Source of the DNA: Deltaproteobacteria bacterium
Lineage (GTDB): Bacteria; UBA10199; DSSB01; JACPFA01
Direction of reading: 5' to 3'
Assembly: GCA_016183235.1 (NCBI GenBank)
Contig: JACPFA010000025.1
Location: 4,709 to 68,708 of the forward strand
Length of the DNA: 64,000 nt
Shown piece after piece: positions 6,812-61,205 of this stretch. Below the pieces are notes generated by a model. It was not told the DNA's origin, made no database searches, and saw nothing but the letters and a program-made list of their open reading frames with translations. Position numbers and translations under genes: made by a program. Numbering within the stretch: the first letter of the stretch is position 1; every line of letters starts with the position of its first letter.

Positions 6812-6842
6812 TGTCATTCCGAGCGAGAGCGAGGAATCTTCC
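6812..6842. repeat. SPE type A variant, single half-unit
   Basis: TGTCATTCCGAGCGAGAGCGAGGAATCTTCC in the 42-bp hisH-hisB gap. Confidence 0.75.
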
Positions 6843-14176: not shown

Positions 14177-14997
14177 GAGGCGAATTTTTTTAAAAGTTCA
14201 AGACAAACGGCTTCGGGGGCATTCATCTTGCCAGGCTCTACACTATTATGAAATCCCGTTCCATGATAATCACACCCTAAGGTCACGCCGATGCCATGTT
14301 GGTTGGCCATTCGCGCTAGTTGGCGACGGGTCTTACTTGGGTGGTCGGGATGGTAAACTTCGAGAGCATCTACGCCAAGGGTGATGATTTTTTGCAAGGT
14401 GCTACTTTGTTTGATAAGCCCGGGATGGGCTACCGAGGTGGTGCCGCCTAAGGCATGAATCCATTGGATTATTTTTTCAGCAGAAACCGATTGTCTTTTG
14501 GCATAGCCCGGTTTGCCTTTTTTTAAAAGTTGGTCAAAGGCAGTCTGCACATTCTTGATCACTCCCTTGGCCACCAGGGCTCGGGCTACATGGGGCCGGC
14601 CGGGCGAGGTGTCGTCGGTCATTTGTTGTTGAATGTCTTCTTCAGTAAGGGAGATGCCGATGGCTTGGAGATTTAATAACATTTGTTGCATGCGACGGCG
14701 GCGGTCGTTTTTTAATTCGATTAAAAATTTTTGAAACTCAATATTTTGCCAATCAAAGCTATAACCTAAAACGTGCACTTCTTCATCATCGACGTGTACG
14801 CTCAATTCAATGCCCGGGATGACTTGAATGCCAGCGTGTTGCGCAGCCGCGAAGGTTTCGGCGATTCCAGCCACGGTGTCATGATCGGTAAGACTCATAA
14901 CCTTAACCCCATTTTTTTTGGCTATTTTGACGATGGCTTCGGGTGGGAGCGTGCCATCGGAGTAGGTGCTGTGCATGTGCAGGTCAATAGGGGTCAC
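14173..14997 (-). CDS. PHP domain phosphoesterase (TrpH/YciV-like)
   Basis: IDLHMHSTYSDG..SLTDHDTVAG..VAHP motifs. 4-nt overlap with the downstream gene. Confidence 0.85.
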   Translation of the reverse strand: MTPIDLHMHSTYSDGTLPPEAIVKIAKKNGVKVMSLTDHDTVAGIAETFAAAQHAGIQVIPGIELSVHVDDEEVHVLGYSFDWQNIEFQKFLIELKNDRRRRMQQMLLNLQAIGISLTEEDIQQQMTDDTSPGRPHVARALVAKGVIKNVQTAFDQLLKKGKPGYAKRQSVSAEKIIQWIHALGGTTSVAHPGLIKQSSTLQKIITLGVDALEVYHPDHPSKTRRQLARMANQHGIGVTLGCDYHGTGFHNSVEPGKMNAPEAVCLELLKKFAS

Positions 14998-16627: not shown

Positions 16628-17401
16628 ATGGCAAAGAATCAATTTGTCACCCTATCCCAAGAAAATTCTATTTTAACCCTTACGCTCAATCGCCCTGAAT
16701 TATTGAACGCTTTGAGTTTAGATTTAGTAAAAGAGTTGGCGGCTTCGTTGAAGCGAGTGGCCAAGCAAAAAGATATTCAAGTTGTGATTCTGAGAGGGGC
16801 TGGGGCAAGCTTTTCAGCCGGCGGCGATCTTAAACACTTTCATCGCCATTTAAAAAAGGCCCGCCAAGATTTTGCAACGGTGAGTGAATATTTAAACCAA
16901 AGTATTTTAACGATGCGGCAAATGCCCCAACCGGTGATTGCTGCCGTCACTGGCCCCGCTTATGCAGCTGGCTTTGGATTGGTGCTAGCTGCTGATTTGG
17001 CGGTTGCCACGGTAAAGGCCACTTTTTCGCCTTCTTTTATTAAAGTGGGTTTAGCTGCCAATGCCTCCACAAGTTTTTATTTGCCCCGTTTGTTGGGGAG
17101 AAAATTAGCTTCTGAAATATTATTTTTAGGAACCAAGTTTAGCGCTTACGAGGCTTTGAAACTTGGTTTCATTAATCGCGTTTGGTTTAAAGAAAAGTTT
17201 GAAGAAGAATTAAAACATTTTGCAGAACAACTGCTAGGCAAACCCAAAACAACTTTAGCCCGGATGAAGACACTATTAGCGCGTAGCTTAGATGCCTCTT
17301 TAGCAGCACAATTAAAATTAGAAAAAAGTCAGATCAGCGCTAGTGCAGGTGAGAAGGCCTTTGCAGAAGGGGTGGCGGCATTTGTCGAAAAACGGAGATA
17401 G
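16628..17401 (+). CDS. enoyl-CoA hydratase/isomerase family protein
   Basis: 257 aa with crotonase motifs GAGASFSAGGDLK and AAVTGPAYAAGFGL. Confidence 0.85.
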   Translation: MAKNQFVTLSQENSILTLTLNRPELLNALSLDLVKELAASLKRVAKQKDIQVVILRGAGASFSAGGDLKHFHRHLKKARQDFATVSEYLNQSILTMRQMPQPVIAAVTGPAYAAGFGLVLAADLAVATVKATFSPSFIKVGLAANASTSFYLPRLLGRKLASEILFLGTKFSAYEALKLGFINRVWFKEKFEEELKHFAEQLLGKPKTTLARMKTLLARSLDASLAAQLKLEKSQISASAGEKAFAEGVAAFVEKRR

Positions 17402-17412
17402 TGCTCGATATT

Positions 17413-17503
17413 ATGGATCCCGGGTCCCCGGCTCGTGGGCCGGGGCAGGCTTACCCGGGATGACGTAATACCGTCATCCCGGACCCTGATCCGGGATCCA
17501 TAT
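17413..17503. repeat. SPE type B inverted doublet (heads inward)
   Basis: ATGGATCCCGGGTCCCCGGCTCGTGGGCCGGGGCAGGCTTACCCGGGATGACG taata CCGTCATCCCGGACCCTGATCCGGGATCCAT. Confidence 0.9.
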
Positions 17504-18323: not shown

Positions 18324-20267
18324 ATGAAAAGCGGGAAGACATCTTCTTTACTCATCATAGGTGTTATTTTTGTCGTCACATTCGTCACATTTTCAATAGG
18401 GGAAGGGCTTGTTTGGGCGCAACGGACGCTCTGTGGGGGCAGACCTTTGATAGATGATAAAAATGCCTGCACGATTGAAAAGTGTATCAATGGCAAGACA
18501 AAATCCCTCGCAATATTGGTGCCCGATGATCATAACCCTTGCACCATCGACAAATGTGACCCTAAGACAGGCAAATTTTATCATCCGGTTTTAGTTGACG
18601 ATGGGAATGCCTGTACCGTGGATAGCTGTCATAAAGTCAAGGGGATTAGCCACGTGTTGGTACCCGTGGATGATGGAATTTCAGCGACTGAAGATAGTTG
18701 TGATGCTAAAACAGGAAAGATTACGCATCAATTTGCTCCTTGCACCTTCCTTCCTAATGGCAATCCACAACGTTTTGATCCAATCTCCAATAGTTGTAAA
18801 CCGGTTAGTCGTAAAATAGTGAGTTTTGGTTCAAACGGGGTTTGTCTATTAGAAACTAATGGTGAAGTTAAATGTGGCTCTACTGTTACGAAATATAGTG
18901 TTCCGCAATATCCGGCGATTATCACAAGTATAGACAAAAAATCTTTCAAAAAAGTTGAGGCATTGCCACCTATGGTATCCTTGGATGGTAACACCGGAAA
19001 ATATGGCAAAGGTCACGTATGTGGTACAAGTTGGGATGGTTATGTCTACTGTTGGGGAGAGAATAAGAATGGGCAACTTGGTAAAACAGGCCTCACGAAC
19101 GATCTACCATATACCGAAAAAAACGCTTTTGGTATAGAGTATACTGTTACACCCACCACGCGTAGTTTGCCGGCGAAGATTATTGATTTAGATTTACCTA
19201 TGGGAGCCGTTGATGTTTCTCTGGGGAGCACGGCTAGCTTAGCTCTCATGGCCAATGGTGAGCTAGTTGTGTGGGGCGGGTGGGACGATTATAATGGTGC
19301 CGATGCTTTTGGAGTCCATGTTGGGAAAAATCCATCCGGTGTGGGAATGATGCAAGGTTTTGCACAGGCTGTAAATAGCCCCACTTTAAAAGGAGTCATT
19401 GCAGCTTCTTTCGCCAATGTCCATGTAACCAACGAATTAACAAAAGCAATCAACCCAAAACCTGATCATGTATTGTGTGTGATATTGAAGGATCATTCTC
19501 TAAAATGTTTTGGTACAGCCACTTTCTTTTTAGGTGTAGGCCCTGATAGTAATATGTATGATCCCGTATGGTATAATGTTCTTATCCCCTTTGCTGAGAA
19601 CGAGGAAGTGAAGTTGGAGGGACCGATTGAATTTGTAAATGTGTCTTATGGGCCCTTGTCTTATTTTGCTACTGTAAAAGTGCCTCTTCGAACTCATGTC
19701 AGTGTTCTTTCTGGAAATAAAATATATTTCTGGACTCGAGAAGAGGATGGTCAATTCTTAAAGCAGGCTGATCTTAGCCCCTTTGTTGATAGTTCAACAA
19801 AATTTTTACAAGTAGAATGTTATAATGATTGTGATCAGCAGGGCTCTTATAATGAGGCCTATTTTCTTGATGGTTTTGGAAATATAGGGACTATTGATAT
19901 TGCAAAGACATGGGGATTAGAACCCGCTAAGAAAATACGATTTACATTACCAGGTGCCACATGGCTACTAAGTGGGAATTCACTTCTTTGTGCTGTTTCA
20001 CCCACGGAGCTAAAATGTGAATATGATAAAGAACTAGGGCAAGATCAACCCCAACCCGAAAGCATCCCCGAAAGTAATCTAAGCCCTGCTGGTGATGGTA
20101 CGGATGATGCTGACGCGACCCCTGGCGAATCGATGGGGGCCTCGGCTGGCATGCCGCCTGGGAGCGAACAGGGGTCACCAGCTGCGTCCGGTAATCCAGG
20201 CACACCGCCGGACGGTCCGCCCGATGAACCCGATGAAGAGGGGCAGCCCGATATTCCAGCAAATTAG
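18324..20267 (+). CDS. secreted protein with N-terminal Cys-rich repeats, RCC1-like repeats and an acidic Pro/Gly tail
   Basis: Signal or anchor MKSGKTSSLLIIGVIFVVTFV. Four repeats of D-D-x-N-x-C-T-x-D-x-C type. RCC1-like YVYCWGENKNGQLG. The last ~75 aa are low-complexity P/G/D/E. Confidence 0.75.
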   Translation: MKSGKTSSLLIIGVIFVVTFVTFSIGEGLVWAQRTLCGGRPLIDDKNACTIEKCINGKTKSLAILVPDDHNPCTIDKCDPKTGKFYHPVLVDDGNACTVDSCHKVKGISHVLVPVDDGISATEDSCDAKTGKITHQFAPCTFLPNGNPQRFDPISNSCKPVSRKIVSFGSNGVCLLETNGEVKCGSTVTKYSVPQYPAIITSIDKKSFKKVEALPPMVSLDGNTGKYGKGHVCGTSWDGYVYCWGENKNGQLGKTGLTNDLPYTEKNAFGIEYTVTPTTRSLPAKIIDLDLPMGAVDVSLGSTASLALMANGELVVWGGWDDYNGADAFGVHVGKNPSGVGMMQGFAQAVNSPTLKGVIAASFANVHVTNELTKAINPKPDHVLCVILKDHSLKCFGTATFFLGVGPDSNMYDPVWYNVLIPFAENEEVKLEGPIEFVNVSYGPLSYFATVKVPLRTHVSVLSGNKIYFWTREEDGQFLKQADLSPFVDSSTKFLQVECYNDCDQQGSYNEAYFLDGFGNIGTIDIAKTWGLEPAKKIRFTLPGATWLLSGNSLLCAVSPTELKCEYDKELGQDQPQPESIPESNLSPAGDGTDDADATPGESMGASAGMPPGSEQGSPAASGNPGTPPDGPPDEPDEEGQPDIPAN

Positions 20268-26591: not shown

Positions 26592-26651
26592 GGAAGATTG
26601 CCACCCCGGCTCGGGGGCCGGGGCAGGCTTGGGGCTCGGCTCGCAATGACA
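26592..26651. repeat. hybrid SPE half-unit (A termini, B-like interior)
   Basis: GGAAGATTGCCACCCCGGCTCGGGGGCCGGGGCAGGCTTGGGGCTCGGCTCGCAATGACA in the sucC-sucD gap. Confidence 0.75.
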
Positions 26652-26661
26652 GATTTATATT

Positions 26662-27537
26662 ATGAGCGTACTGGTTAATAAAAATACTCGTGTTGTAACC
26701 CAAGGCATTACCGGGAGTACGGGCCAATTTCATACTCGGGCGTGCAAAGAATATGGCACTCAAATGGTGGCAGGCGTTACCCCTGGTAAAGGCGGCCAAA
26801 ATTTTGAAGGCATTCCCATTTTTAATTCGGTCATTGAGGCCAAAGAAAAAACTGGGGCCAATGTCTCGGTGATTTATGTGCCGCCGCCTTTTTCAGCCGA
26901 TGCCATTATGGAAGCTGTTGATGCCGATTTAGATTTAGTGATTTGTATTACTGAAGGCATTCCGGTTTTAGACATGGTGAAGGTTAAGCGCTTTATGCAA
27001 GACAAGCGCACTCGGTTAGTGGGGCCTAATTGCCCAGGGGTGATTACGCCTGGGGAATGCAAGATTGGCATTATGCCAGGGGCCATTCATAAACCAGGTA
27101 ACATTGGAGTGGTGTCGCGCAGTGGGACTTTGACTTATGAAGCAGTTTATCAGCTCACCCAATTGGGCCTAGGGCAATCGACTTGCATTGGTATTGGGGG
27201 CGACCCGGTGAATGGCACCAACTTTATTGACTGCTTAAAATTATTTAACGAAGATCCAAAAACTGAGGCCATCGTGATGATTGGGGAAATTGGTGGCAGT
27301 GCTGAAGAAGAAGCCGCCCTTTACATTAGGCAGAATGTTAAGAAACCGGTGGTGAGTTTTATTGCGGGGATGACTGCGCCTCCCGGCAAACGCATGGGCC
27401 ATGCGGGTGCTATCATTTCGGGTGGGAAGGGCACTGCGAAAGAAAAGATTGCCGCGTTAGAAGCCGCAGGGATTAAAGTAGCCAAGTCGCCGGCAGAAAT
27501 TGGGAAAACTTTATCAATGTCATTGCGAGGCCAGTAG
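26662..27537 (+). CDS. sucD: succinyl-CoA synthetase alpha subunit
   Basis: 291 aa, [27 protein letters not shown]. The last codons (..SMSLRGQ*) are encoded by a type A repeat. Confidence 0.95.
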
Positions 27538-32567: not shown

Positions 32568-32651
32568 GTCATGCCGGACCTCGATCCGGCATCCACAATT
32601 ATAGATCCCGGATCCCCGGATCAAGTCCGGGGCAGGCTTGTCCGGGATGAC
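32568..32651. repeat. SPE type B doublet (heads outward)
   Basis: CGTCATGCCGGACCTCGATCCGGCATCC acaattata GATCCCGGATCCCCGGATCAAGTCCGGGGCAGGCTTGTCCGGGATGACG in the sufU-sufT gap. Confidence 0.85.
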
Positions 32652-32664
32652 GATACCTCCATTT

Positions 32665-33153: not shown

Positions 33154-33286
33154 TGTCATCCCGAGCTAAGCCTGCCCCGGACTCGATCCGGGGAGGGATC
33201 TTCCATTTCATTCAGATAAACAATCCAAAATAGAAGATTCGGAGTTTACCCTGAGCATTAGCGAAGGGGCACGCCTCAGAATGACA
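33154..33286. repeat. chimeric SPE doublet (type B half + type C half)
   Basis: TGTCATCCCGAGCTAAGCCTGCCCCGGACTCGATCCGGGGAGGGATCTTCC ..loop.. AAGATTCGGAGTTTACCCTGAGCATTAGCGAAGGGGCACGCCTCAGAATGACA. Confidence 0.85.
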
Positions 33287-41680: not shown

Positions 41681-41764
41681 TGTCATCGCGAGCGAAGCGT
41701 GGCGATCTTCTGTTTTAATACTGAAGATTGCTTCCCCCGGATCAAGTCCGGGGTCGCAATGACA
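41681..41764. repeat. SPE doublet, A-like termini with a B-like right interior
   Basis: TGTCATCGCGAGCGAAGCGTGGCGATCTTC tgttttaatact GAAGATTGCTTCCCCCGGATCAAGTCCGGGGTCGCAATGACA. Abuts the mtaB stop. Confidence 0.85.
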
Positions 41765-43823: not shown

Positions 43824-46800
43824 ATGACAAATGATCCCATTCGCAATGAGGGGTCCACTAGTTGGTGGGATCCTTTTTATTTTCGTGTTGAGTCAGGGCC
43901 AACTAAATTAGCTGATAAACCTGATCCGAGCCTTGTTCAAGCTTTGCACTTGCGAGGTAGTGAACTGTTGCGTTTTGGCGATGAGCAGCAAAAAACCGTC
44001 GGGGCATCCTTATTACAATGGGTTGAAGCGCAAGGGGGATATGAAGGTGAATTGGCCGCGAGTGAATTATGTAAAGGCGGGGCTGAGAGCAAGCGAGGGT
44101 GTAGCGGGGTTGAGCGAGTGGTGGGGGGAGCTACACAAGTGATGCAGAATTTGGATGTAGGCGATGTGGCATTATTAGCCGGGGTAGGGTTGTTGGGGCA
44201 AGCGACGCGTAATGGGGTCATGTCATGGATGGGGAGACGAGTCGAGAGTTGGTGGAACCGCGGAACGGTGGGAACGGTGCTAGCCCGAGGGGTTGGAGTT
44301 ACGACCGAGGTAGCTGGAATTACGGGAATTGGGGTGGCTGAAAAATTAAAGCATGGAGAATCAGTAAACCTAGGGGACGAAGCTTTACGAACGGGGGTTG
44401 GATGGTTGGGCTTGCGTTTAGGGATGTTGGGGGTGGGTGGTACGGCACAGGCTTTCCATTATGTGGGCAGATATGAGGTGCCGAGGTTAGTTGGAGGGAT
44501 GACATTCACAAGGGTGACGAGTGCTTTCGTCGGAGGTACTGCGGGAATGGTAGGGGCAGAAACGTTATTTGAAAGTTCAGACGGTTTATCGAAACGAGCT
44601 TTGAGTCAAAAAGTTTATCAAGCAGCCACGACACAAGCCAAATTTATGGTGGGGATGCGAGGGATCCACGCCTTATTTCCTAGCGTGGCACATGCCAGCC
44701 AGCGCTTATCTGTTGCGCATGTTTATTTACAACGCGGGATTCAGCCAAAAACAATCACGCCTCCCAATGGGTTTGACCGATTTTTAGGAACCCTTTCTTC
44801 TTATGGTGCCTGGCAGCCCGCTATGGCTTTCCCCGGGCGTGTAGAAGGGCCACTCAAAGGAATGCAATTTGGTGCTTTAGTTGAGCCGGCTTTGGGTGCC
44901 GGTCGTGGTGGTGCTAATCGCCGGGTTAAGGTTGATGAAAGTAGACCGCCGATGGGTGTGGTGCCGTTTTTTGGAACAAGATTTGAAAAAACTCCGACTC
45001 AATTTCAAGTTCCCAATCCTGAAGCAATTGCCAGCTGTTTAGCAGCAGATCCTACTTATGCTGCACAGTTACTCGGTCATTTTGGCCTAACGACCCATGC
45101 CTTAGATATACGTGCCTTTGCCCGTGGTTTTAATCTCGCCCGCCAAAATCCCGAAACCGTGCGCACTACCGCGTGGGATCTTGATGAAGTGCAATTGCAT
45201 TGGGCCCTGACACCGGCGGGCCTACTACGTGGCAACGGTAGAGGACAGGACGCCCGGTATCATCATACAGACCCCAAAGTTTTTGACCCTCAAACTTATC
45301 AGCCCTATCAGCCCCGTCATAAACCCAACCCCCTGCTACGTGCGGTGTATTGGGCTATGGATGGTTTTCGTTTGCGCCAAGAAATGCAGTTGCATCCGGG
45401 GGTGCCGGCCTATGAGTTAGGTTTGCGCCTGGGTCAAGCCGACAATCTTATTTTGTGCACCACCGGGCCCTCAGGTCGTTTTATGATCTTGGCCAATGAA
45501 GTGCCGGCGTTGAAATATATTTATTTTGGTAAAGGCCCTGATGAATTGGTCACCGACCGCGACGTGCGTCATGCACCTAACATTTACACCCGTGAACATT
45601 TGGCTATGGCCATGCAACAGGCAGCTAGCTTGCGTTATCTGGCCGATGAACATCCTCTGGTGGTTGATTATGTTCACCGGGTGCAAAATAATCCTAAAGG
45701 TGGGGCCAAGCTCAAACATCCAGCCTTGCCTTTGTTGCTAGCCAAGGCGGGCATTGCCAAGCGGCCCTTCAATCGTTTGGTCGATGATTCGTCTTCTACT
45801 TATAAAATGTTGGCCGCCTTGCCTGGCTTTACCATCTATCAACCTCCGTCCAACCGTAAAAAGTTTTCCCTTTGGCCCTTGTCGTTCTTAAATCTTACTT
45901 TAGGCACTTCTAGTGGTTATTTAAATCGGATGAGTGGTTATTATGTTGATGATTTGGCCAATGCCATGGGCAATGGTTATCAATCCGTTCGGTTGCCTCG
46001 CACTGCACCGATTCCTGCCGATTATCCTCATCAACGTCTTGCGATCGAACTCCCTTGGTGGCGCCACGACCGCGAATACTTTGGCCCCATGCGCGACATT
46101 AAGGCAGACGCGCGGGCCGTTCGTGCAGCCCATTTGCCGCCGACGTTTAAAAATCGTTATGTAGCCATGCGCCATGGTCTAGCGCGTAGTAACTCGTACG
46201 ATCAGGTGGTGAGTGATCCAGCTCGGGCAAGCCTGCCGAAATGGGGGCTTGAGCCTGAAAGCCGCACTCATATGCGTGAGTCGTTTAACAAATGGTTTGA
46301 TAGCAATCAGCCACAAATTGAAGCGGCCCTGCAAGCCGGCAAGTTGCACATCTTCAGTTCTGATTTTAGCCGTGCCCGTGAAACCGCTGAAATTGCGGCC
46401 GCGGTTATCTATGAAAAAACCGGCAAACATATTGCAATTCAAATCGCTCCCGCTTTACGTGATCGAGGCTTTGGTGGGGCGGAAGGGCAAAGCCCTGCCG
46501 CTACTTACTATAACCAAGTATGGGCAGAAGATCCCAAAAATCCCCATCATAAAATGTTCGGGGCCGAATCGGCTCACGAGGTGCAAGGCCGCTTTGTCAC
46601 ATTCATGAAAGGTTTGGAAAAACGTTTTAGCGATGGTGACCACTTGGTATTACTTTTCTCCCACGGCGATCTGATGCGCATTGGCATGACGGCTGTAAAC
46701 GACATGAACCCTGGTTTACATGTGGAGCGCTTTGGTTATATCTTTAATGGGGACCCCATCGATATGCGACGCCAACCCAATATCGTTCAGGCGCCCACAA

Positions 46801-48098
46801 AATTAAACAATCAATTTGTGGCCGTTCGGCATGGGCAGGCGGTTCCTAATGTTGAGAAGCACTTAGTGTCTTCTCCCAAAATAGGCATGGAACCTGGCCA
46901 GGGGTTAACAGCCACAGGCCGCATACAAACCCGTGAACGCACGCTTGCCTGGTATGATGCCAACCAAGCCCGAATCGATGAAGCCTTAGCCGCCGGCAAA
47001 TTGCATATTTATGCCTCGCCTTTTACCCGTACCACCGAGACTGCCCAATTAGCCGCTGATGTTCTTTATGAAAAAACAGGCAAGCGAGTTCACGTTGTCC
47101 GTGCCGATGAATTGCGCGAACGCTATTTTGGTGAGCGGGATGGTTCAAACGATCCATGGTCAGTTTATCGAGCGGTGTGGGCGGAAGATAAAACCAATCC
47201 TCACCACCATTACCAACAGGCTGAAAACCCTTACCAAGTTCAAGCCCGCTTTTTGGGATTCATGAATGAACTCGACCGTCGTTATGCCGACGGCGATCAC
47301 TTGGTTTTGCTATATTCCCACGGTGATGTCATTCGTTTGAGCGTAGCGGGATTAACGCGTTCTCCAAGCTACGATCCGGCGGTTCATAAAGAGTCTTTTG
47401 GAGATGTTCACCATGTCGAATATCGGGAACTTACTGCTATGGAAAGTCCGCCGGTAGGGAGTCGTTTCCAATATCGATTGATGAATTCTACGGATTATCA
47501 AGAAATGCCTTGGGCGAGTGGAAAGGGTGTAACCCATCAAGTAGCCATCAATCCCCCCAACGCCGATATGAAGGCCAAAGACTTTGCCTGGCGGGTGAGC
47601 ATGGCACCGGTGAAAGACGAAGGGGCGTGGAGCCATTTCACGGGTTATCAGCGAGTGGTGGTTATTACAGAAGGTCCAGGTATTGTTTTAACTCATCATA
47701 TGGATGATGCTTTGCCGGTAACAAATAGGGTGTTGCCATGGCAGGTTTATCGTTTCGATGGTACAGCAACCACTAAGCCTGAATTAATCGGTGGAATCCC
47801 GATCAAAGATTTTAGCGTTATTTACGATCCCACCCGTGCCCGTGTGAACGTGAGCGTATTAGATGGCACGAATGGTAGTGTCGATAAGGGGGCCCTGCGT
47901 GCCTTGACCCAAGGCGACCATTATTATCATTGTGCCCAAGGCCCTTGTACTATTGCTATCAAAGGTGAAGCCGAACATCACTTGAACCAAGGCGACACCT
48001 TTCATTTACAAGTTCAACCGAATAACGCCGTGCAAATTACCGTGAGACCTGGTTCTTCCACTGCTAAGGTAATTAGCACTTCCATATACCCTCGTTAA
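43824..48098 (+). CDS. orphan 1424-aa multidomain protein: Gly-rich N-terminus, unknown core, 2x histidine phosphatase (PGAM-type), HutD-like C-terminus
   Basis: Uninterrupted ORF. RHG..N / R..ETA / SHGD motif sets occur twice (near aa 775-985 and 996-1180). C-terminal MPWASGKGVTHQV..FAWRVSMAPV..WSHFTGYQRVVVI resembles HutD/Ves. Locally GC-rich. Confidence 0.8.
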   Translation: MTNDPIRNEGSTSWWDPFYFRVESGPTKLADKPDPSLVQALHLRGSELLRFGDEQQKTVGASLLQWVEAQGGYEGELAASELCKGGAESKRGCSGVERVVGGATQVMQNLDVGDVALLAGVGLLGQATRNGVMSWMGRRVESWWNRGTVGTVLARGVGVTTEVAGITGIGVAEKLKHGESVNLGDEALRTGVGWLGLRLGMLGVGGTAQAFHYVGRYEVPRLVGGMTFTRVTSAFVGGTAGMVGAETLFESSDGLSKRALSQKVYQAATTQAKFMVGMRGIHALFPSVAHASQRLSVAHVYLQRGIQPKTITPPNGFDRFLGTLSSYGAWQPAMAFPGRVEGPLKGMQFGALVEPALGAGRGGANRRVKVDESRPPMGVVPFFGTRFEKTPTQFQVPNPEAIASCLAADPTYAAQLLGHFGLTTHALDIRAFARGFNLARQNPETVRTTAWDLDEVQLHWALTPAGLLRGNGRGQDARYHHTDPKVFDPQTYQPYQPRHKPNPLLRAVYWAMDGFRLRQEMQLHPGVPAYELGLRLGQADNLILCTTGPSGRFMILANEVPALKYIYFGKGPDELVTDRDVRHAPNIYTREHLAMAMQQAASLRYLADEHPLVVDYVHRVQNNPKGGAKLKHPALPLLLAKAGIAKRPFNRLVDDSSSTYKMLAALPGFTIYQPPSNRKKFSLWPLSFLNLTLGTSSGYLNRMSGYYVDDLANAMGNGYQSVRLPRTAPIPADYPHQRLAIELPWWRHDREYFGPMRDIKADARAVRAAHLPPTFKNRYVAMRHGLARSNSYDQVVSDPARASLPKWGLEPESRTHMRESFNKWFDSNQPQIEAALQAGKLHIFSSDFSRARETAEIAAAVIYEKTGKHIAIQIAPALRDRGFGGAEGQSPAATYYNQVWAEDPKNPHHKMFGAESAHEVQGRFVTFMKGLEKRFSDGDHLVLLFSHGDLMRIGMTAVNDMNPGLHVERFGYIFNGDPIDMRRQPNIVQAPTKLNNQFVAVRHGQAVPNVEKHLVSSPKIGMEPGQGLTATGRIQTRERTLAWYDANQARIDEALAAGKLHIYASPFTRTTETAQLAADVLYEKTGKRVHVVRADELRERYFGERDGSNDPWSVYRAVWAEDKTNPHHHYQQAENPYQVQARFLGFMNELDRRYADGDHLVLLYSHGDVIRLSVAGLTRSPSYDPAVHKESFGDVHHVEYRELTAMESPPVGSRFQYRLMNSTDYQEMPWASGKGVTHQVAINPPNADMKAKDFAWRVSMAPVKDEGAWSHFTGYQRVVVITEGPGIVLTHHMDDALPVTNRVLPWQVYRFDGTATTKPELIGGIPIKDFSVIYDPTRARVNVSVLDGTNGSVDKGALRALTQGDHYYHCAQGPCTIAIKGEAEHHLNQGDTFHLQVQPNNAVQITVRPGSSTAKVISTSIYPR

Positions 48099-51402: not shown

Positions 51403-52365
51403 CTATCTTGGGTGTATTTCGAACAATACTCCGTAACGTAAGCCATGGTTACTCACTGTAATTTTTTTAAATTTTAAGTAACGCATCAATCGGCTTAAAA
51501 TTAATCCGCCAGTTGGCAAAACATCGGCTCGTTTAGGATGCATGCCTGGAAAGCATTTGCGGTCGGCTAACGATAATTTTCGTAGAGCTTCGGTTAATTT
51601 TTCAATCTGTTGTAGCGTTAAAGTTTTGCCATGGATTTTTTTGGGGTCATAAGTTTTCATTTTTTTCAGAACCGCTAACAAGCTAGTTACCGTAGCTGCA
51701 ACCCCGACCCACTTTCTCTTTGCGCGTGTCTGTCTCTGGCGAAAGACCAACGTCATCCCGGGCTTAGCCCCGGGATCCATAATTGATTCGTCAATAAAAT
51801 TTTTTAACTGATTCCATTCTAAATCAGAAATGGGATGACGATGGATGAACTTTTCCGTCAAACTAACGGACCCTATAGGCAGGCTTATTTTTTTTAATTG
51901 CCCATGCCGTTCGCTTACAATCTCAGTTGACCCCCCGCCAATATCGATCATGCCTATCTTTACACCGTGCTTAGCAAAATCTTGCTTGGCACTTAAATAA
52001 GAAAGCCTGGCTTCTTCTTCCCCTGAAATAATTTCAACTGGAATTTTAAGTTCATCAAAAATCTGTTTTGCAAATAGATAGCCATCTTTTGCTTTACGAA
52101 AAGCCGCCGTGCCAACCGCTAAAACCTTATTTACCTGGTATTGATCACAAATTTTTTTATATTTTTTTAAAACCAAAAAAGCCCTAGCTTTGGCTTTGGG
52201 GTCAAAATTTTTTCTTGGTTTTAAATTCTTAGCCAGCCGAGGGATTTCTGCCTGATCGAGCAATACTTTGCATAAACCATTGTTTAAGCGCTGCACGATG
52301 GTTAACAGAACTGTATTCGACCCAATGTCGATAGCAGCAATTTTATTTCTGTTTTTCGGCGGCAT
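51403..52365 (-). CDS. ppx: Ppx/GppA family phosphatase (N-terminal two-domain form)
   Basis: 320 aa with IAAIDIGSNTVLL, MIDIGGGSTE. Contains a 10-codon in-frame SPE type B insert. The start overlaps the tolB 3' end by 23 nt. Confidence 0.85.
   Translation of the reverse strand: MPPKNRNKIAAIDIGSNTVLLTIVQRLNNGLCKVLLDQAEIPRLAKNLKPRKNFDPKAKARAFLVLKKYKKICDQYQVNKVLAVGTAAFRKAKDGYLFAKQIFDELKIPVEIISGEEEARLSYLSAKQDFAKHGVKIGMIDIGGGSTEIVSERHGQLKKISLPIGSVSLTEKFIHRHPISDLEWNQLKNFIDESIMDPGAKPGMTLVFRQRQTRAKRKWVGVAATVTSLLAVLKKMKTYDPKKIHGKTLTLQQIEKLTEALRKLSLADRKCFPGMHPKRADVLPTGGLILSRLMRYLKFKKITVSNHGLRYGVLFEIHPR
51751..51780. repeat. SPE type B half-unit inside the ppx coding sequence (in frame)
   Basis: CGTCATCCCGGGCTTAGCCCCGGGATCCAT, read on the minus strand as MDPGAKPGMT. 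Confidence 0.85.
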
Positions 52366-53614
52366 CGAGCCAATTCGACCAATCTGAATTGATGCAATTA
52401 TTTTTATTTTCGATCACGGTTTGATTATACCCATCCCACATCATCAGCTTCAATTCACTCTTCGCATCACGGTGCACCGTGCTATACACAATGAATCGAC
52501 CATCGGGTGAAAAGGTAGGTGATTCATTACTACCGCCACCTTGAGTTAATTGCTGAAAACCACTGCCGTCGGCATTCATCAGCGCAACATTAAATTGTCC
52601 GCCCACGCGCGTTGAAAAAACCACTTTGTCACTACGTGGTGACCAATCGGGCGAATCATTTTGATAACCAAAATAAGTCAAACGCGTCGTTTCGCCACCT
52701 TGCTTATTGACAGCAAAGAGATGCAAATTGCCGGCCCGCTCCGAGGCAAAGATAAGCCGCTCACCATCGGGCGAAAAAGTGGGAGCAATGTCAACCCCCG
52801 TGGTTTGGGTAATTTGTCTCACTTGATTGCCTTCGGTATCAAACAAATAAAGATCAGGGTCACCCCCCATGCTAGAAGAAACCGCTAGATAATTGCCGTC
52901 GGGAGTAAAAGCTGGGGTGATGTTTAAGGCTTTATTAAAGGTAATGCGTTTGCCTTTACCGCCCTTGATCCCACTAATATAAATTTCAGGAAAATAGCTG
53001 GCATAAGAAGTGTAAGCAATGCGATCTGCAAAGGGTGACCAAGAGGGGGAAATATTATTAACTTTATTTTTGGTGATGGGGGTGATGCCAGTGCCATCAA
53101 CATTCATAATCATGATCTGCCTTTTATTGAGGGGGCCACAGGCCGCAACGATTTTAGTATTGTAAAACCCCCGTTCGCCAGTGAGGGCCAAAAGAATTTC
53201 ATCCATGAAGCGATGAATGGCGACATAAAGGGCCTTCTTTTTCACTTTGTAACGTTTGCCCACTAACATTTTGCCAAGTTGGGGATCGAACAAACGCAAT
53301 TCAACCGTAGATCCACCTTTAACCACGCCGGTAATCAGTCCCCGCGCCCCAATTCCGGTCCATTTTGAAAAATTAATATCTTCAGGTAAATAATGCCCGC
53401 TGTGATCGGTAAAACGTGATCGGTCGATCACTTCAAAATAACCCGCCAGGTTGAGATTTTTTTTCAGCATCTCGGTCAGTTCATGGGCGGTGTCACTCGA
53501 GCCACTTAAGTCAGCCACTGCAATAGGAAAGCGCTGCTCAGGAGTGAATTGATCGATCAAAATATAAATCTCAGCCTTTGCAGGGGTGGCGATTAATAGT
53601 AGTAATAGTGTCAT
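52343..53614 (-). CDS. tolB: Tol-Pal system beta-propeller protein TolB
   Basis: Repeated SPDG../WSP.. propeller blades. Conservative start MTLLLLLIATPAKA at 53614. The alternative in-frame ATG at 53713 (MKNLFRR..) would translate a type A repeat. The ORF track start at 53824 is rejected. Confidence 0.9.
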   Translation of the reverse strand: MTLLLLLIATPAKAEIYILIDQFTPEQRFPIAVADLSGSSDTAHELTEMLKKNLNLAGYFEVIDRSRFTDHSGHYLPEDINFSKWTGIGARGLITGVVKGGSTVELRLFDPQLGKMLVGKRYKVKKKALYVAIHRFMDEILLALTGERGFYNTKIVAACGPLNKRQIMIMNVDGTGITPITKNKVNNISPSWSPFADRIAYTSYASYFPEIYISGIKGGKGKRITFNKALNITPAFTPDGNYLAVSSSMGGDPDLYLFDTEGNQVRQITQTTGVDIAPTFSPDGERLIFASERAGNLHLFAVNKQGGETTRLTYFGYQNDSPDWSPRSDKVVFSTRVGGQFNVALMNADGSGFQQLTQGGGSNESPTFSPDGRFIVYSTVHRDAKSELKLMMWDGYNQTVIENKNNCINSDWSNWLDAAEKQK

Positions 53615-53697
53615 TGCAAAGAAAACGAGATTGCTTCGCAGACGCTCGCAATGACAAGTTGATGTCATTGCGAGACCAGCAGGGCGAGGCAATCTTC
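53610..53697. repeat. SPE type A units (truncated doublet plus half-unit) at the tolB 5' end
   Basis: TGTCATTGCaaagaaaacGAGATTGCTTCGCAGACGCTCGCAATGACA aagttga TGTCATTGCGAGACCAGCAGGGCGAGGCAATCTTC. Confidence 0.85.
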
Positions 53698-53756
53698 TAA
53701 ATAAATTCTTCATAAAAGCTAAAATAGTGATTTTTACATTTAAATCAATCCAAAAT

Positions 53757-53907
53757 GGAAGATTCTTTGTCATCATGGGTCCCCCGGTCAATCCCCCGAT
53801 CAAGTCGGGGGAGGGGGATGACATTCCTCAGAATGAATGAATGAATGGATGCCGGATCAGGTCCGGCATGACGGTATTGCGTCATCCCGGGCCTGACCCG
53901 GGATCCA
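53757..53907. repeat. cluster: B-like half-unit, (GAAT)4 microsatellite, SPE type B doublet
   Basis: GGAAGATTCTTTGTCATCATGGGTCCCCCGG..GGGGGATGACA; GAATGAATGAATGAAT (53831-53846); GGATGCCGGATCAGGTCCGGCATGACGG tattg CGTCATCCCGGGCCTGACCCGGGATCC. Confidence 0.85.
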
Positions 53908-53926
53908 TATAATATGACAGCTATTT

Positions 53927-57634: not shown

Positions 57635-60600
57635 ATGGAAATTAAGCAGCGTGTTGACAAACTAATCAGTGCATTAGCACAGCGCATTCTTGTTTTAGAT
57701 GGGGCCATGGGCACGGCCATTCAAGGCTTTAACCTGGGGCCGTCTGATTTTAGTGGGGAACAATACGAAGGTTGCAATGAATATCTGATACTCACTCGCC
57801 CGGATGTCATTGAGAAAATTCATGCTAGTTATTTGGCAGCGGGGGCTGATATTTTAGAGACCAATACCTTTGGTGGCACGCCGCTGGTCTTGGCCGAGTA
57901 TGGCTTACAAGATCAAACCTATGAAATTAATTTTCAAGCAGCCAAGCTTGCCCGAAAAGTGGTGGAAAAGTTTAGCACGAAAGATTGGCCGCGCTTTGTG
58001 GCTGGATCCATAGGGCCTACAACTAAGGCTATCAGTGTTACCGGTGGGGTTACTTTTTCACAACTGATCGATCATTTTTATCACCAAGCCAAGGCCCTTT
58101 ATGAAGGTGGGGTCGATTATTTTTTGATCGAAACCTGTCAAGACACGCGTAATATTAAGGCCTGCCTGTTGGGGATTGATCGAGTTTTTGTTGAGAAGAA
58201 TGAAAAAATTCCGGTGGCCGTTTCGATTACCATTGAACCTACGGGTACTATGCTAGCCGGTCAATCCGCCGAAAGCCTGGCGGCAAGCCTGGCCCATCGT
58301 GAGCTATTATACGTCGGCCTTAATTGTGCCACGGGCCCAGCCTTCATGACCGATTCGATTCGTTCTTTAGCCGCGTTCACAGAAAGTCGCGTGGCTTGCG
58401 TGCCCAATGCAGGGTTGCCTGATGAAGAGGGGCGTTATTTAGAAACACCCGAAATGGTAGCGAAGGTGATTCGGGGTTTTGCTGAAAAAGGTTGGCTTAA
58501 TTTGGTGGGGGGCTGTTGTGGCACGGGGCCAGCGCATATCAAGGCCTTGCGGGCGGCTGTGCTTGACCAAAAACCTCGCGAGGTTAAGGCAAATCATCGG
58601 CATTTTCTTTCAGGCATCGACTATTTAGAAATCACCGATGAAATGCGGCCGGTATTGGTGGGGGAGCGCACCAATGTGATTGGCAGTCGTAAATTTAAAA
58701 ATCTTATCAGCGAAGGCAAATTTGAAGAGGCCAGTGAGATTGCCCGTCTGCAAGTAAAAAATGGGGCTCAAATTATTGATGTGTGTATGGCCAATCCCGA
58801 TCGCGACGAACCCGAAGACATGCAGCATTTTTTAGAACAGGTGATTAAAAAAGTAAAACCGCCACTGATGATTGATTCCACAGATGACAAGGTCATTGCA
58901 TTGGCGCTCACCTATTGCCAAGGCAAAGCTATCATCAATTCCATTAATCTAGAAGATGGTGAAGAGCGCTATCAAAAAGTATTGCCGCTGGCCAAACAAA
59001 TGGGGGCGGCTTTAGTTGTTGGTACGATCGATGAAGACAAGGTGCAAGGCATGGGGGTGACGCGCGAGCGCAAACTTTCCATTGCAGAACGATCCTATGA
59101 TTTATTGACGAAAAAATACGGGGTGAGGCCCGAAGATATTTATTGGGACTGTTTGGTGTTTCCGGTGGGTACCGGTGACGCCCAATATCGCACCAGTGCG
59201 ATTGAAACGGTCGAGGGGATTGGCTTGGTTAAAAAAGCCTTTCCCCGCACTCGCACAATTTTGGGTATTTCTAATGTCAGTTTTGGGTTGCCGCCGGCGG
59301 GCCGTGAAGTGCTGAATTCAGTTTTTTTGTATCACTGCGTGCAGGCGGGCCTTGATCTTGCCATCGTCAATACCGAACAATTGCAACGTTACTCTTCGAT
59401 TTTAGATACCGAGAAAAAACTTTGTGAAGATCTGTTGTGGCAACGAGGAAATGACGCACTAACCGTTTTTACCGAATATTTCCGAAAGGTTCAGAAAAAA
59501 GAAAAAAAGTTAAGCAGCAATTTAACTCTAGAAGAACGGCTGGCTAATTATATTTTAGAGGGTACCAAAGAAGGTTTAACTGCAGACATCGATCAGGCTT
59601 TGCAAAAATATAAACCCCTTGAAATCATCAATGGCCCACTGATGAAGGGCATGGATGAAGTGGGGCGCTTGTTTGCAAAAAACGAGTTGATTGTGGCCGA
59701 GGTGTTGCAAAGTGCTGAGGCCATGAAGGCAGCAGTGGCCAGGCTTGAACCCCACATGGACAAGGCCGATGGGGCACAAAAAGGTACAGTGATTTTAGCA
59801 ACCGTGAAGGGTGATGTGCACGATATTGGCAAAAATTTAGTAGATATTATTTTAAGTAATAATGGTTACAAGGTTATTAATTTGGGGATCAAGGTTCCTT
59901 CTGAACAACTCATTGCTGCGGTTAAACAACACCAGCCTAGGATTATTGGCCTTTCAGGGTTGTTGGTAAAATCAGCCCAACAAATGGTATTAACCGCTGA
60001 AGATTTATCTAAAGCCGGGATTAATTTGCCCGTATTGGTAGGGGGTGCGGCCCTTTCGGAAAAATTCACCCACAAAAAGATTGCCCCAGCTTATTCGGGG
60101 GTAGTGGCCTATGCTAATGATGCCATGAAAGGTTTAGAACTAGCCGATCATATTATCGATAAGGCCAAATTTGAGGTGTTGAAAAAAACCTTGGCCGAAA
60201 AAAGCAAATCTATTTTGCAAGAGCAAGAAAAATCAGAAGTTGCTCCCGTTTCAACTCCGGTTAAGAAAATAACTTTACTCAAAGAAGTCCCACCAGCCCC
60301 TGACTTTGAGCGCCATATTCTTGCTAACACACCACTCGATGAAATTTGGCGTTATATTAACCCGCTGATGCTTTATGGGCGGCACTTAGGCATCAAAGGC
60401 AAATGGGTAAAACTACTTGCCAAGGGTGAGTATCGCGAGCTGCGCGAATCCGATGAAGGCAAAAAGGCTATCGAAATTTGGGAGATCGTGCAGCAAATCA
60501 AACAAGATTATAAAAAGAAAGTTATTCGACCCAAAGCGGTGTATCAATTTTTCAAAGCTGCAAGTTTAGACAATCAACTCATGATTTATTCAAGTGATGG

Positions 60601-61171
60601 CAAAACAAAATTAGCCACGTTTGATTTTCCTCGGCAGAAATCAGGTGAAGGCTTGTGTTTGGCAGATTATGTATGGCCTCAACGTCATCCCGGGCTTGCC
60701 TGCCCCGGACCCCGATCCGGGGACCCGGGATCCATGATAACAAAGAATCTTCCATTTGATTCAGTTTGCTTATTTGCCGTTACCGCCGCCAGTGGTGATA
60801 GTGTTCGTCAAGAAGCCGAAAAATTAAAAGCAGCCGGCGAATATTTAAAATCACATGCCCTGCAGGCATTGTGTTTAGAAACCGCTGAGGGCTATGCCGA
60901 ATGGCTCCACGGGAAAATCCGCGGCTTTTGGGGGTTTCCGGATGGGCCTGATGTAACCATGATGGATCGTTTTCAAACTAAGTATCATGGCAAACGTTAT
61001 TCTTTCGGGTACCCAGCCTGCCCCAATTTAGAAGACCAAAAAATTCTATTTGAATTGCTCAAGCCTGAAGACATTGGCATTCAACTCACCGACGGATTCA
61101 TGATGGACCCTGAAGCCAGCGTTTCAGCCATCGTCTTCCACCACCCCGAAGCCACTTATTTCAATATATAA
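57635..61171 (+). CDS. metH: cobalamin-dependent methionine synthase
   Basis: 1178 aa with Hcy-binding, pterin-binding, B12 cap and B12-binding (GDVHDIGKN) regions and an AdoMet activation domain. Carries a 25-codon repeat-derived insert at 60683-60757. Confidence 0.95.
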   Translation: MEIKQRVDKLISALAQRILVLDGAMGTAIQGFNLGPSDFSGEQYEGCNEYLILTRPDVIEKIHASYLAAGADILETNTFGGTPLVLAEYGLQDQTYEINFQAAKLARKVVEKFSTKDWPRFVAGSIGPTTKAISVTGGVTFSQLIDHFYHQAKALYEGGVDYFLIETCQDTRNIKACLLGIDRVFVEKNEKIPVAVSITIEPTGTMLAGQSAESLAASLAHRELLYVGLNCATGPAFMTDSIRSLAAFTESRVACVPNAGLPDEEGRYLETPEMVAKVIRGFAEKGWLNLVGGCCGTGPAHIKALRAAVLDQKPREVKANHRHFLSGIDYLEITDEMRPVLVGERTNVIGSRKFKNLISEGKFEEASEIARLQVKNGAQIIDVCMANPDRDEPEDMQHFLEQVIKKVKPPLMIDSTDDKVIALALTYCQGKAIINSINLEDGEERYQKVLPLAKQMGAALVVGTIDEDKVQGMGVTRERKLSIAERSYDLLTKKYGVRPEDIYWDCLVFPVGTGDAQYRTSAIETVEGIGLVKKAFPRTRTILGISNVSFGLPPAGREVLNSVFLYHCVQAGLDLAIVNTEQLQRYSSILDTEKKLCEDLLWQRGNDALTVFTEYFRKVQKKEKKLSSNLTLEERLANYILEGTKEGLTADIDQALQKYKPLEIINGPLMKGMDEVGRLFAKNELIVAEVLQSAEAMKAAVARLEPHMDKADGAQKGTVILATVKGDVHDIGKNLVDIILSNNGYKVINLGIKVPSEQLIAAVKQHQPRIIGLSGLLVKSAQQMVLTAEDLSKAGINLPVLVGGAALSEKFTHKKIAPAYSGVVAYANDAMKGLELADHIIDKAKFEVLKKTLAEKSKSILQEQEKSEVAPVSTPVKKITLLKEVPPAPDFERHILANTPLDEIWRYINPLMLYGRHLGIKGKWVKLLAKGEYRELRESDEGKKAIEIWEIVQQIKQDYKKKVIRPKAVYQFFKAASLDNQLMIYSSDGKTKLATFDFPRQKSGEGLCLADYVWPQRHPGLACPGPRSGDPGSMITKNLPFDSVCLFAVTAASGDSVRQEAEKLKAAGEYLKSHALQALCLETAEGYAEWLHGKIRGFWGFPDGPDVTMMDRFQTKYHGKRYSFGYPACPNLEDQKILFELLKPEDIGIQLTDGFMMDPEASVSAIVFHHPEATYFNI
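60683..60757. repeat. SPE type B unit plus ATCTTCC tail inside the metH coding sequence (in frame)
   Basis: CGTCATCCCGGGCTTGCCTGCCCCGGACCCCGATCCGGGGACCCGGGATCCATGATAACAAAGAATCTTCCATTT, translated RHPGLACPGPRSGDPGSMITKNLPF. Compare the intergenic copy at 33154. Confidence 0.85.
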
Positions 61172-61205
61172 TAATGTCATTCAGAAATTTGTAAATTGCC
61201 GCACC

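Follow-up and report, generated by a model that had tools for sequence, protein, structure and literature searches.

A probable CGTC-tagged REP, in frame at a length-variable loop of methionine synthase (MetH) in an uncultured deltaproteobacterium

The locus considered here lies toward the end of a stretch of 64,000 nucleotides (the window) from an uncultured deltaproteobacterium (assembly GCA_016183235.1, contig JACPFA010000025.1). It consists of a metH gene (57635-61171, plus strand), encoding a cobalamin-dependent methionine synthase of 1178 amino acids, and a repeat unit of 75 nt that is situated inside this gene (60683-60757, plus strand). The unit is in frame and stop-free. Base 60683 begins codon 1017 of the open reading frame (ORF), and the element occupies codons 1017-1041, which read RHPGLACPGPRSGDPGSMITKNLPF, a peptide of 25 residues that includes five prolines and four glycines and is preceded by CLADYVWPQ and followed by DSVCLFAVTA. 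The position, frame and translation, and the absence of a stop codon or frameshift in the 75 nt, are as the initial annotation of the window had described them. No stop codon interrupts this frame, and 75 nt is a whole number of codons, so that the element should be transcribed and translated with the gene. The G+C content peaks at ~0.72 at the element, compared with 0.44 across the window.

The element is composite in structure. Its first four nucleotides are an unpaired CGTC tag (60683-60686), recognizable in the sequence as the head defined for repetitive palindromic (REP) elements of the CGTC type (PMC3733652). The tag is followed by the left arm, ATCCCGGG (60687-60694), of an outer 8-bp stem, which is 100% complementary to the right arm, CCCGGGAT (60724-60731). 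The loop of the outer stem is 29 nt in length and encloses a second, nested hairpin (60703-60722) composed of CCCCGGA, a 6-nt loop and TCCGGGG, which constitutes the “type B” module and in which 60703-60709 pairs with 60716-60722 over 7 bp. Both stems were identified by inverted-repeat pairing and by the predicted fold, and both are perfectly complementary. Downstream of the outer stem lie the CCA tail typical of CGTC REPs (60732-60734; PMC3733652) and a 23-nt 3′ extension, TGATAACAAAGAATCTTCCATTT (60735-60757). The final 15 nt of this extension (60743-60757) are identical in the orthologue of a sister lineage, described below, and are the usual tail of the window’s “type A” units. As RNA, the nested hairpin has a minimum free energy of −32.8 kcal/mol (z-score −2.05); no intrinsic terminator was predicted at the hairpin, and the element had no Rfam match. 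The internal 8- and 7-bp stems are the inverted repeats of the region, and there is no direct repeat between the flanks ...GGCCTCAA and GATTCAGT....

Sequences related to the element recur in the window. With up to three mismatches allowed, both a 20-nt and a 22-nt sub-pattern were found at three places each (0.00 expected). A search using blastn-short identified a full-length intergenic copy at 17390-17465 (minus strand; 80% identity over 76 nt), which is half of a head-to-head dimer, and a partial intergenic copy at 32598-32652 (84% identity). It also identified an intergenic type B copy at 33154-33208 (plus strand; 84% identity over 33155-33200) that contains the head, the inner hairpin and an GGGATCTTCCATTT tail. 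This last copy had been cited as the counterpart of the metH insert in the initial annotation, and the copies in the window bear out the status of the insert as a repeat unit. A further intergenic copy, upstream of tolB at 53753-53822 (minus strand; 78% identity over 53753-53811), has the same head-to-tail architecture as the metH unit, carries its 3′ module (CCATGATRACAAAGAATCTTCC; CCATGATRACAAAGAATCTTCCATTT) and is absent from the sister lineage. The type B inner module is also found at 17426-17445, 26604-26623, 32614-32632, 33175-33193 and 41735-41753. A structural scan of the 64 kb returned 27 GTCAT-headed hairpin candidates, of which ~20 look like true units. The window’s REP units are nearly all intergenic, copies other than that in metH begin with CGTC or TGTC, and head-to-head dimers are found at 1821-1877, 17417-17497 and 53849-53904. 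Simple copies have loops of ~5 nt (1854, 53881) or ~6 nt (51752). A 12-nt match to the head at 14812-14823 proved to be ordinary coding sequence and was rejected as a REP.

CGTC REPs are defined by an unpaired CGTC or TGTC head, a stem of 8-9 bp in which the first two pairs are A-T, a loop of 4-5 nt, and a tail that is mostly CCA. They are multi-copy, dispersed and mainly intergenic, often form head-to-head dimers, and have no dedicated transposase of the REP-associated tyrosine transposase (RAYT) type (PMC3733652). The same study describes intragenic REPs (Di Nocera, De Gregorio and Rocco, 2013, BMC Genomics 14:522; PMC3733652), and its Additional file 3 gives in-frame CGTC peptides such as RHPGLDPGS... 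(dnaE2 of E. litoralis), RHPGGGRDD, VIPAKAGI and ...PASAGMT; metH is absent from its list of REP-bearing genes. The unit described here possesses the terminal CGTC, an 8-bp stem that starts with A-T pairs, the CCA tail, and a dispersed multi-copy distribution that includes dimers. The reading frames of the metH unit (RHPGL...) and of a second intragenic REP of the window, in ppx (...KPGMT), are those in Additional file 3. The head, A-T stem start, CCA tail, dispersed copies and occasional in-frame peptides (RHPGL.., ..PGMT) are shared with CGTC-1 REPs in particular, from which the metH unit differs by the second hairpin nested in its loop and by an extension that terminates with a different REP subtype’s tail. 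The hosts differ as well, this one being an uncultured bacterium of 44% G+C whereas the CGTC REPs of PMC3733652 are mainly from Alphaproteobacteria. The unit is treated here, on the basis of its sequence features, as a putative loop variant of the CGTC-tagged REP family, because 13-15-nt loops occur on the same stem elsewhere and atypical loops were noted in Bradyrhizobium CGTC-1 (PMC3733652).

The distribution of the stem was explored using an exact-pattern scan with one genome per species. The pattern GTCATCCCGGGC-N(2-32)-CCCGGGATCC was present in at least 120 loci from Alpha-, Beta-, Gamma- and Deltaproteobacteria, the candidate phyla radiation (CPR), Dehalococcoidia, Actinobacteria and others, and the metH stem ATCCCGGG was found in genomes of many phyla. 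Among the matches listed, the dominant loop was TTGA, the stem was followed by CCA in 122 of 139, and this stem was also found with loops of 13-15 nt, some of which were in part self-complementary. The phylum spread of the GTCATCCCGGGC...CCCGGGATCC stem looks wider than the five phyla reported in 2013, with metagenome-assembled genomes included in the present count. A literature search with the literal head sequences returned irrelevant primer matches only.

On sequence grounds, the metH gene that carries the element looks functional. It is assigned all five MetH domains, and relatives of the window’s MetH carry PF02574, PF00809, PF02607, PF02310 and PF02965. The roles of the MetH residues that bind zinc, cobalamin and S-adenosylmethionine (AdoMet) are well established. 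In a full-length alignment with Escherichia coli MetH, the zinc ligands C231/C294/C295 align with C247/C310/C311, the cobalamin motif D727-x-H729-x-x-G732 and S780 align with D757/H759/G762/S810, and the AdoMet motif R1121-x3-G1125-Y1126 aligns with R1134/G1138/Y1139. The closest relative, P0001, is a groundwater-metagenome protein with 95% identity over aligned columns and is represented by four independent contigs (L001, L124, L125 and L129). Synteny with this sister lineage extends over ~11 kb and includes ppx, tolB, tolA, exbD, exbB, a phasin gene, a racemase gene and metH. The two metH genes differ at 9% of nucleotides, with indels only at the insert (1178 codons), and comparison of 1165 codons gave a synonymous divergence (dS) of 0.42 and a nonsynonymous to synonymous ratio (dN/dS) of 0.059, which indicates strong purifying selection on metH while it bore the REP. 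The window’s protein is present in NCBI nr, in the 90% cluster of the sister protein; more distant named relatives are labelled Deltaproteobacteria, Bdellovibrionota or “bacterium.”

The loop that houses the element belongs to the AdoMet-binding (reactivation) domain and corresponds to E. coli residues ~1047-1056. This loop comprises 8 residues in E. coli (CLADFVAPKLSGKADYIGAFAVT, essentially as given in the initial annotation) versus 28 in the window’s protein. Among 121 homologues, the stretch from ADYV to the conserved Asp is most often 8-9 residues long and has extremes of 4 and 30, and orthologues free of repeats have loops of 4-17 residues that are unrelated in sequence. In P0002, the next relative after the sister (70% identity), the loop is of ordinary type, with nine residues (LPTSNEEF and one more) and no repeat-like peptide. 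The proposal that a repeat unit resides in an intact and constrained metH, at a position where most orthologues have a short loop, is supported. The MetH of Thermus thermophilus, which is active and whose structure has been solved (PDB 8SSC, 8SSD, 8G3H), has roughly 20 residues aligned across the loop stretch, so that the extra length seen here is compatible with the fold. An AlphaFold2 model of MetH residues 871-1178, built from 52 sequences, had a mean predicted local distance difference test (pLDDT) score of 88.6. In this model the insert spans domain residues 147-171, no secondary structure was assigned to residues 146-171, and two 10-residue blocks within the insert (151-170) scored 53 and 57, followed by a block that scored 96. 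The modeled domain matched the solved reactivation domains 8SSE, 6BM5 and 1MSK with template modeling (TM) scores of 0.77-0.79. The insert would probably form a flexible, exposed surface loop. When the insert peptide was used as a doubled query, no protein sharing three 5-residue words with it was found among the representatives of a 5.8-billion-protein set. A metagenome scan with MetH residues 960-1082 recovered the sister lineage alone as a close match, all others being ≤47% identical.

At the same site, the sister metH reads TAT CAT TCT GAG CCC AGC GGG GCG AAG AAT CTT CCA TTT, encoding YHSEPSGAKNLPF. Contigs L001, L124 and L125 carry ATCATTCTGAGCCCAGCGGGGCGAAGAATCTTCCATTT there, and L129 matches by its length. 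The sister insert is a shorter and different REP, which is close to GTCATTCTGAACCCAGCAGGGTGAAGAATCTTCCAATT, found three bases past the sister’s own metH stop codon, and which also resembles the type A units of the window at 6812, 27520 and 43319. Both alleles have the xTCAT head, and the FDS codons are preceded in both, in matching register, by one and the same 15-nt tail, AAGAATCTTCCATTT. The head and tail are separated by 18 nt in the sister and by 54 nt in the window, which together with one additional upstream codon in the window gives a net difference of 39 nt, or 13 codons. The description of the insert in the initial annotation as 25 extra codons therefore holds in that 25 codons of repeat are present, and is too high when the closest relative is taken for comparison; the number varies with the reference, being 13 relative to the nearest orthologue, because that orthologue also holds a repeat unit at the site, and ~19-20 relative to the modal loop of 8-9 residues. 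Alignment with orthologues, which had been proposed as the means of delimiting the insertion, revealed no homologous peptide encoded by DNA lacking the repeat, as the partly similar peptide of the nearest orthologue, YHSEPSGAKNLPF, is itself encoded by a repeat of the same superfamily.

Immediately past the metH stop codon, both lineages have a GTCATTC[A/T]GAA head (61176-61200 in the window; 6276-6313 in L001). A complete REP follows metH in the sister only, the window copy having diverged past the head.

The same loop contains repeat-derived sequence in other MetH lineages. Two proteins of other uncultured bacteria, P0020 and P0007, which are 64-65% identical to the window’s MetH, have 25-29 residues in this loop (e.g., TPHPNPLPQGERGKKLSPSPSTGEGRGEG). 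The corresponding DNA (P0020 gene, L122 10001-13675; P0007 gene, L123 10001-13669) is an unrelated palindromic repeat, CCCTCTCCC...GGGAGAGGG, which is in frame and yields peptides such as LSPSPSTGEGRGEG. P0020 contains a second in-frame copy at residues ~606-640, in the linker that follows the pterin-binding domain, and in P0007 other parts of the gene, around residue 118 and at further places in the activation domain, also hold repeat-like segments that are in frame and encode related peptide motifs. This MetH loop has been occupied repeatedly by repeat-derived sequence, for which a filter at a permissive site is the economical explanation. A bolder and rather doubtful proposal is that REPs in coding loops may act as exchangeable cassettes and that this MetH loop is a true hotspot instead of merely being permissive. 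If that were true, gene conversion between REPs or hairpin-guided insertion could regularly contribute to the way loop lengths vary in conserved enzymes.

The observations are probably explained by a CGTC-tagged REP that was absorbed into the metH coding sequence at a loop of variable length, is translated, and is tolerated as a passenger that is not a working part of the enzyme. The common ancestor of this bacterium and its closest known relative probably already had a REP at the site. The interior of this REP would later have been replaced, the simplest route being gene conversion by, or recombination with, a genomic REP that shared its GTCAT head and AAGAATCTTCCATTT tail; the window’s intergenic copy at 53753-53822 has exactly the ends that such an exchange needs. 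The REP would be transcribed and translated together with metH to give the 25-residue peptide, which the enzyme would tolerate as a presumably neutral passenger. A single ancestral REP with a later swap of its interior is the simplest history.

Several findings weigh against this explanation. The window derives from a single assembly, and its B-type allele was found nowhere else in either the contig index or the metagenome scan. We infer translation of the insert in vivo solely from the maintained frame, and four of the six reading frames through the element are open, so that the open frame is weak evidence for selection on the peptide. Two positions of the activation domain are not conserved (E. 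coli D946 is A897 and Y1190 is F1176). As to family membership, the 29-nt loop exceeds the 4-5 nt of the CGTC REP definition and the 23-nt 3′ extension falls outside that published definition. As to the route of entry, there was no target-site duplication at the element and no mobilising enzyme was seen; none of the 10 ORFs scanned, from ~45 in the window that are ≥150 amino acids in length, had a Pfam match to a transposase.

Alternatively, the two alleles might derive from independent insertions of different REPs at one nucleotide position that is a preferred REP target, with no ancestral REP having been remodelled. The interiors do differ throughout (18 vs. 54 nt) and form different stems, the codons at the 5′ junction differ (WPQ vs. 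TPY), REPs turn over rapidly between the lineages, as in a cluster upstream of tolB that exists in the window only, and in other MetH lineages this loop has been entered by repeats of unrelated sequence. This scenario nevertheless appears unlikely, as the identical 15-nt AAGAATCTTCCATTT lies in exact register despite the 9% nucleotide difference between the genes, which would have required nucleotide precision twice, and a selective filter on a permissive loop accounts for the recurrence without targeting. More improbable still is that the hairpin has been kept for a role as nucleic acid, whether in mRNA processing or stability, as a translational pause, or as a stretch of DNA to which gyrase or a nucleoid protein binds, with the peptide as a by-product. 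Functions at the RNA level and in gyrase binding have been proposed for REPs (PMC3733652), the nested hairpin is stable (−32.8 kcal/mol; z-score −2.05), and a REP persists at the site in both lineages. The lineages keep different hairpins, however, and the stem of the ppx REP has decayed in the sister. Neither a terminator signal nor an Rfam match was found at the site, there is no evidence of compensatory change, for which two alleles only are available, and most MetH genes are empty at this position.

Misplacement of a repeat in a metagenome-assembled contig, or a rare variant, would agree with the occurrence of this allele in the window’s own record and its absence from the contig index and metagenome scan, and repeats are a known cause of assembly errors. 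Such an artefact is very unlikely here, given that the frame is kept across each junction and MetH runs on unbroken in the flanks. In addition, independent assemblies of the sister lineage have a REP at the exact site, and NCBI nr contains the insert-bearing protein. Other REP copies have stretches of 5-22 nt in common with the element, and assemblers commonly use k-mers longer than this. Excision of the segment before the enzyme works, in the manner of an intein or intron, has nothing to recommend it beyond the interruption of a conserved gene and may be practically dismissed. The 25 residues (75 nt) are far too few for an intein and lack splice-junction residues, no Rfam intron match was found, and the multiple-of-three, stop-free length is kept in the alleles of both lineages, which are of different length, a constraint that splicing would not need.

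Other small repeats that enter genes include the palindromic elements of Rickettsia (RPEs; Ogata et al., 2000, 2002; Claverie and Ogata, 2003, as cited in PMC3733652). According to that account, RPEs are likewise palindromic repeats that lie in frame in housekeeping genes that are still functional, to which they add short peptides, and the metH unit is similarly an in-frame insertion in a conserved protein-coding gene that has been left intact. RPE-1 is a longer palindromic insertion, and the clade that hosts RPEs is a different one. A parallel with RPEs had been drawn at the outset, and the relationship is closer than analogy, in that RPE-6 and RPE-4 have been equated with CGTC-1 and CGTC-4 and are thus classed in the CGTC-tagged REP superfamily (PMC3733652). 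It is by this published equation, and not by an RPE consensus, that the metH unit is linked to them. The QMITE1 and QMITE2 elements of Coxiella burnetii are also structured repeats of small size, which overlap with ORFs and in some cases contribute in-frame residues (PMC5896051). Identity with these elements was rejected: QMITE2 contains a GTAG REP, has direct repeats of 7-11 nt in its full-size form and is located for the most part at gene 3′ ends (Wachter et al., 2018; PMC5896051), QMITE1 is 300-400 bp in length (PMC5896051), and the metH element has no target duplication. The nearest relatives of the window’s MetH and Ppx come from groundwater metagenome contigs and not from Coxiella. Assignment as a MITE (a transposable element of the miniature inverted-repeat kind) was also rejected, in view of the lack of 15-30-bp terminal inverted repeats and of a flanking target-site duplication.

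In-frame CGTC REPs, including those of Rickettsia classed as RPEs, have already been described, and the metH case is a real example of a documented kind of event. It provides a well-delimited instance in which a conserved enzyme of large size and several domains took up selfish palindromic DNA and stayed under selective constraint. For annotators, the 25 additional residues are neither native MetH sequence nor the result of a frameshift, and copies within genes are to be expected by REP finders that work from patterns. What is modestly new is that close relatives have exchanged one REP subtype for another at a fixed site, and that unrelated repeats have converged on the MetH loop. With denser sampling, turnover at the site could throw light on REP movement and on the growth of protein loops.

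Another REP of this family within a gene (51751-51780, plus strand) lies in frame inside a ppx/gppA-like ORF (51403-52365, minus strand) and is read as MDPGAKPGMT. At the same place, the orthologue of the sister lineage (P0125, 77% identical) retains MDQGLKPGMT, a copy in which the stem has decayed, indicating that this insertion is older than the split of the two lineages. The window’s ppx has an additional 30-nt indel directly beside the REP head. A hairpin look-alike in the same gene, CGTCATCCC...GGAATC (51811-51839, minus strand), is located 31 nt from the true REP and was rejected as native coding sequence. It supplies codons for RHPISDLEWN, in which H, P, I, D and W are invariant in nine aligned ppx orthologues, and it is therefore a false positive for pattern-based REP detection.

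Other features of the window concern the repeat family and two unusual proteins. A cluster of approximately five REP units upstream of tolB (53606-53925) contains both the composite copy that most resembles the metH insert and a head-to-head dimer. This cluster, ~250 nt in length, is missing in the sister lineage, which has ~70 nt there; its presence in the window only implies that gain or loss of REPs is fast relative to the dS of 0.42. At the end of sucD (27518-27537; ORF 26662-27537, plus strand), the last approximately six codons and the stop (...SMSLRGQ*) come from a REP head of the TGTCATTGCGAG type. An ORF of 1424 amino acids (43824-48098, plus strand) has an unusual architecture in which Pfam matches are confined to the last ~420 residues (His_Phos_1, HutD), and an ORF of 647 amino acids (18324-20267, plus strand) unusually combines Dictyostelium CTDC-type and RCC1 repeats.

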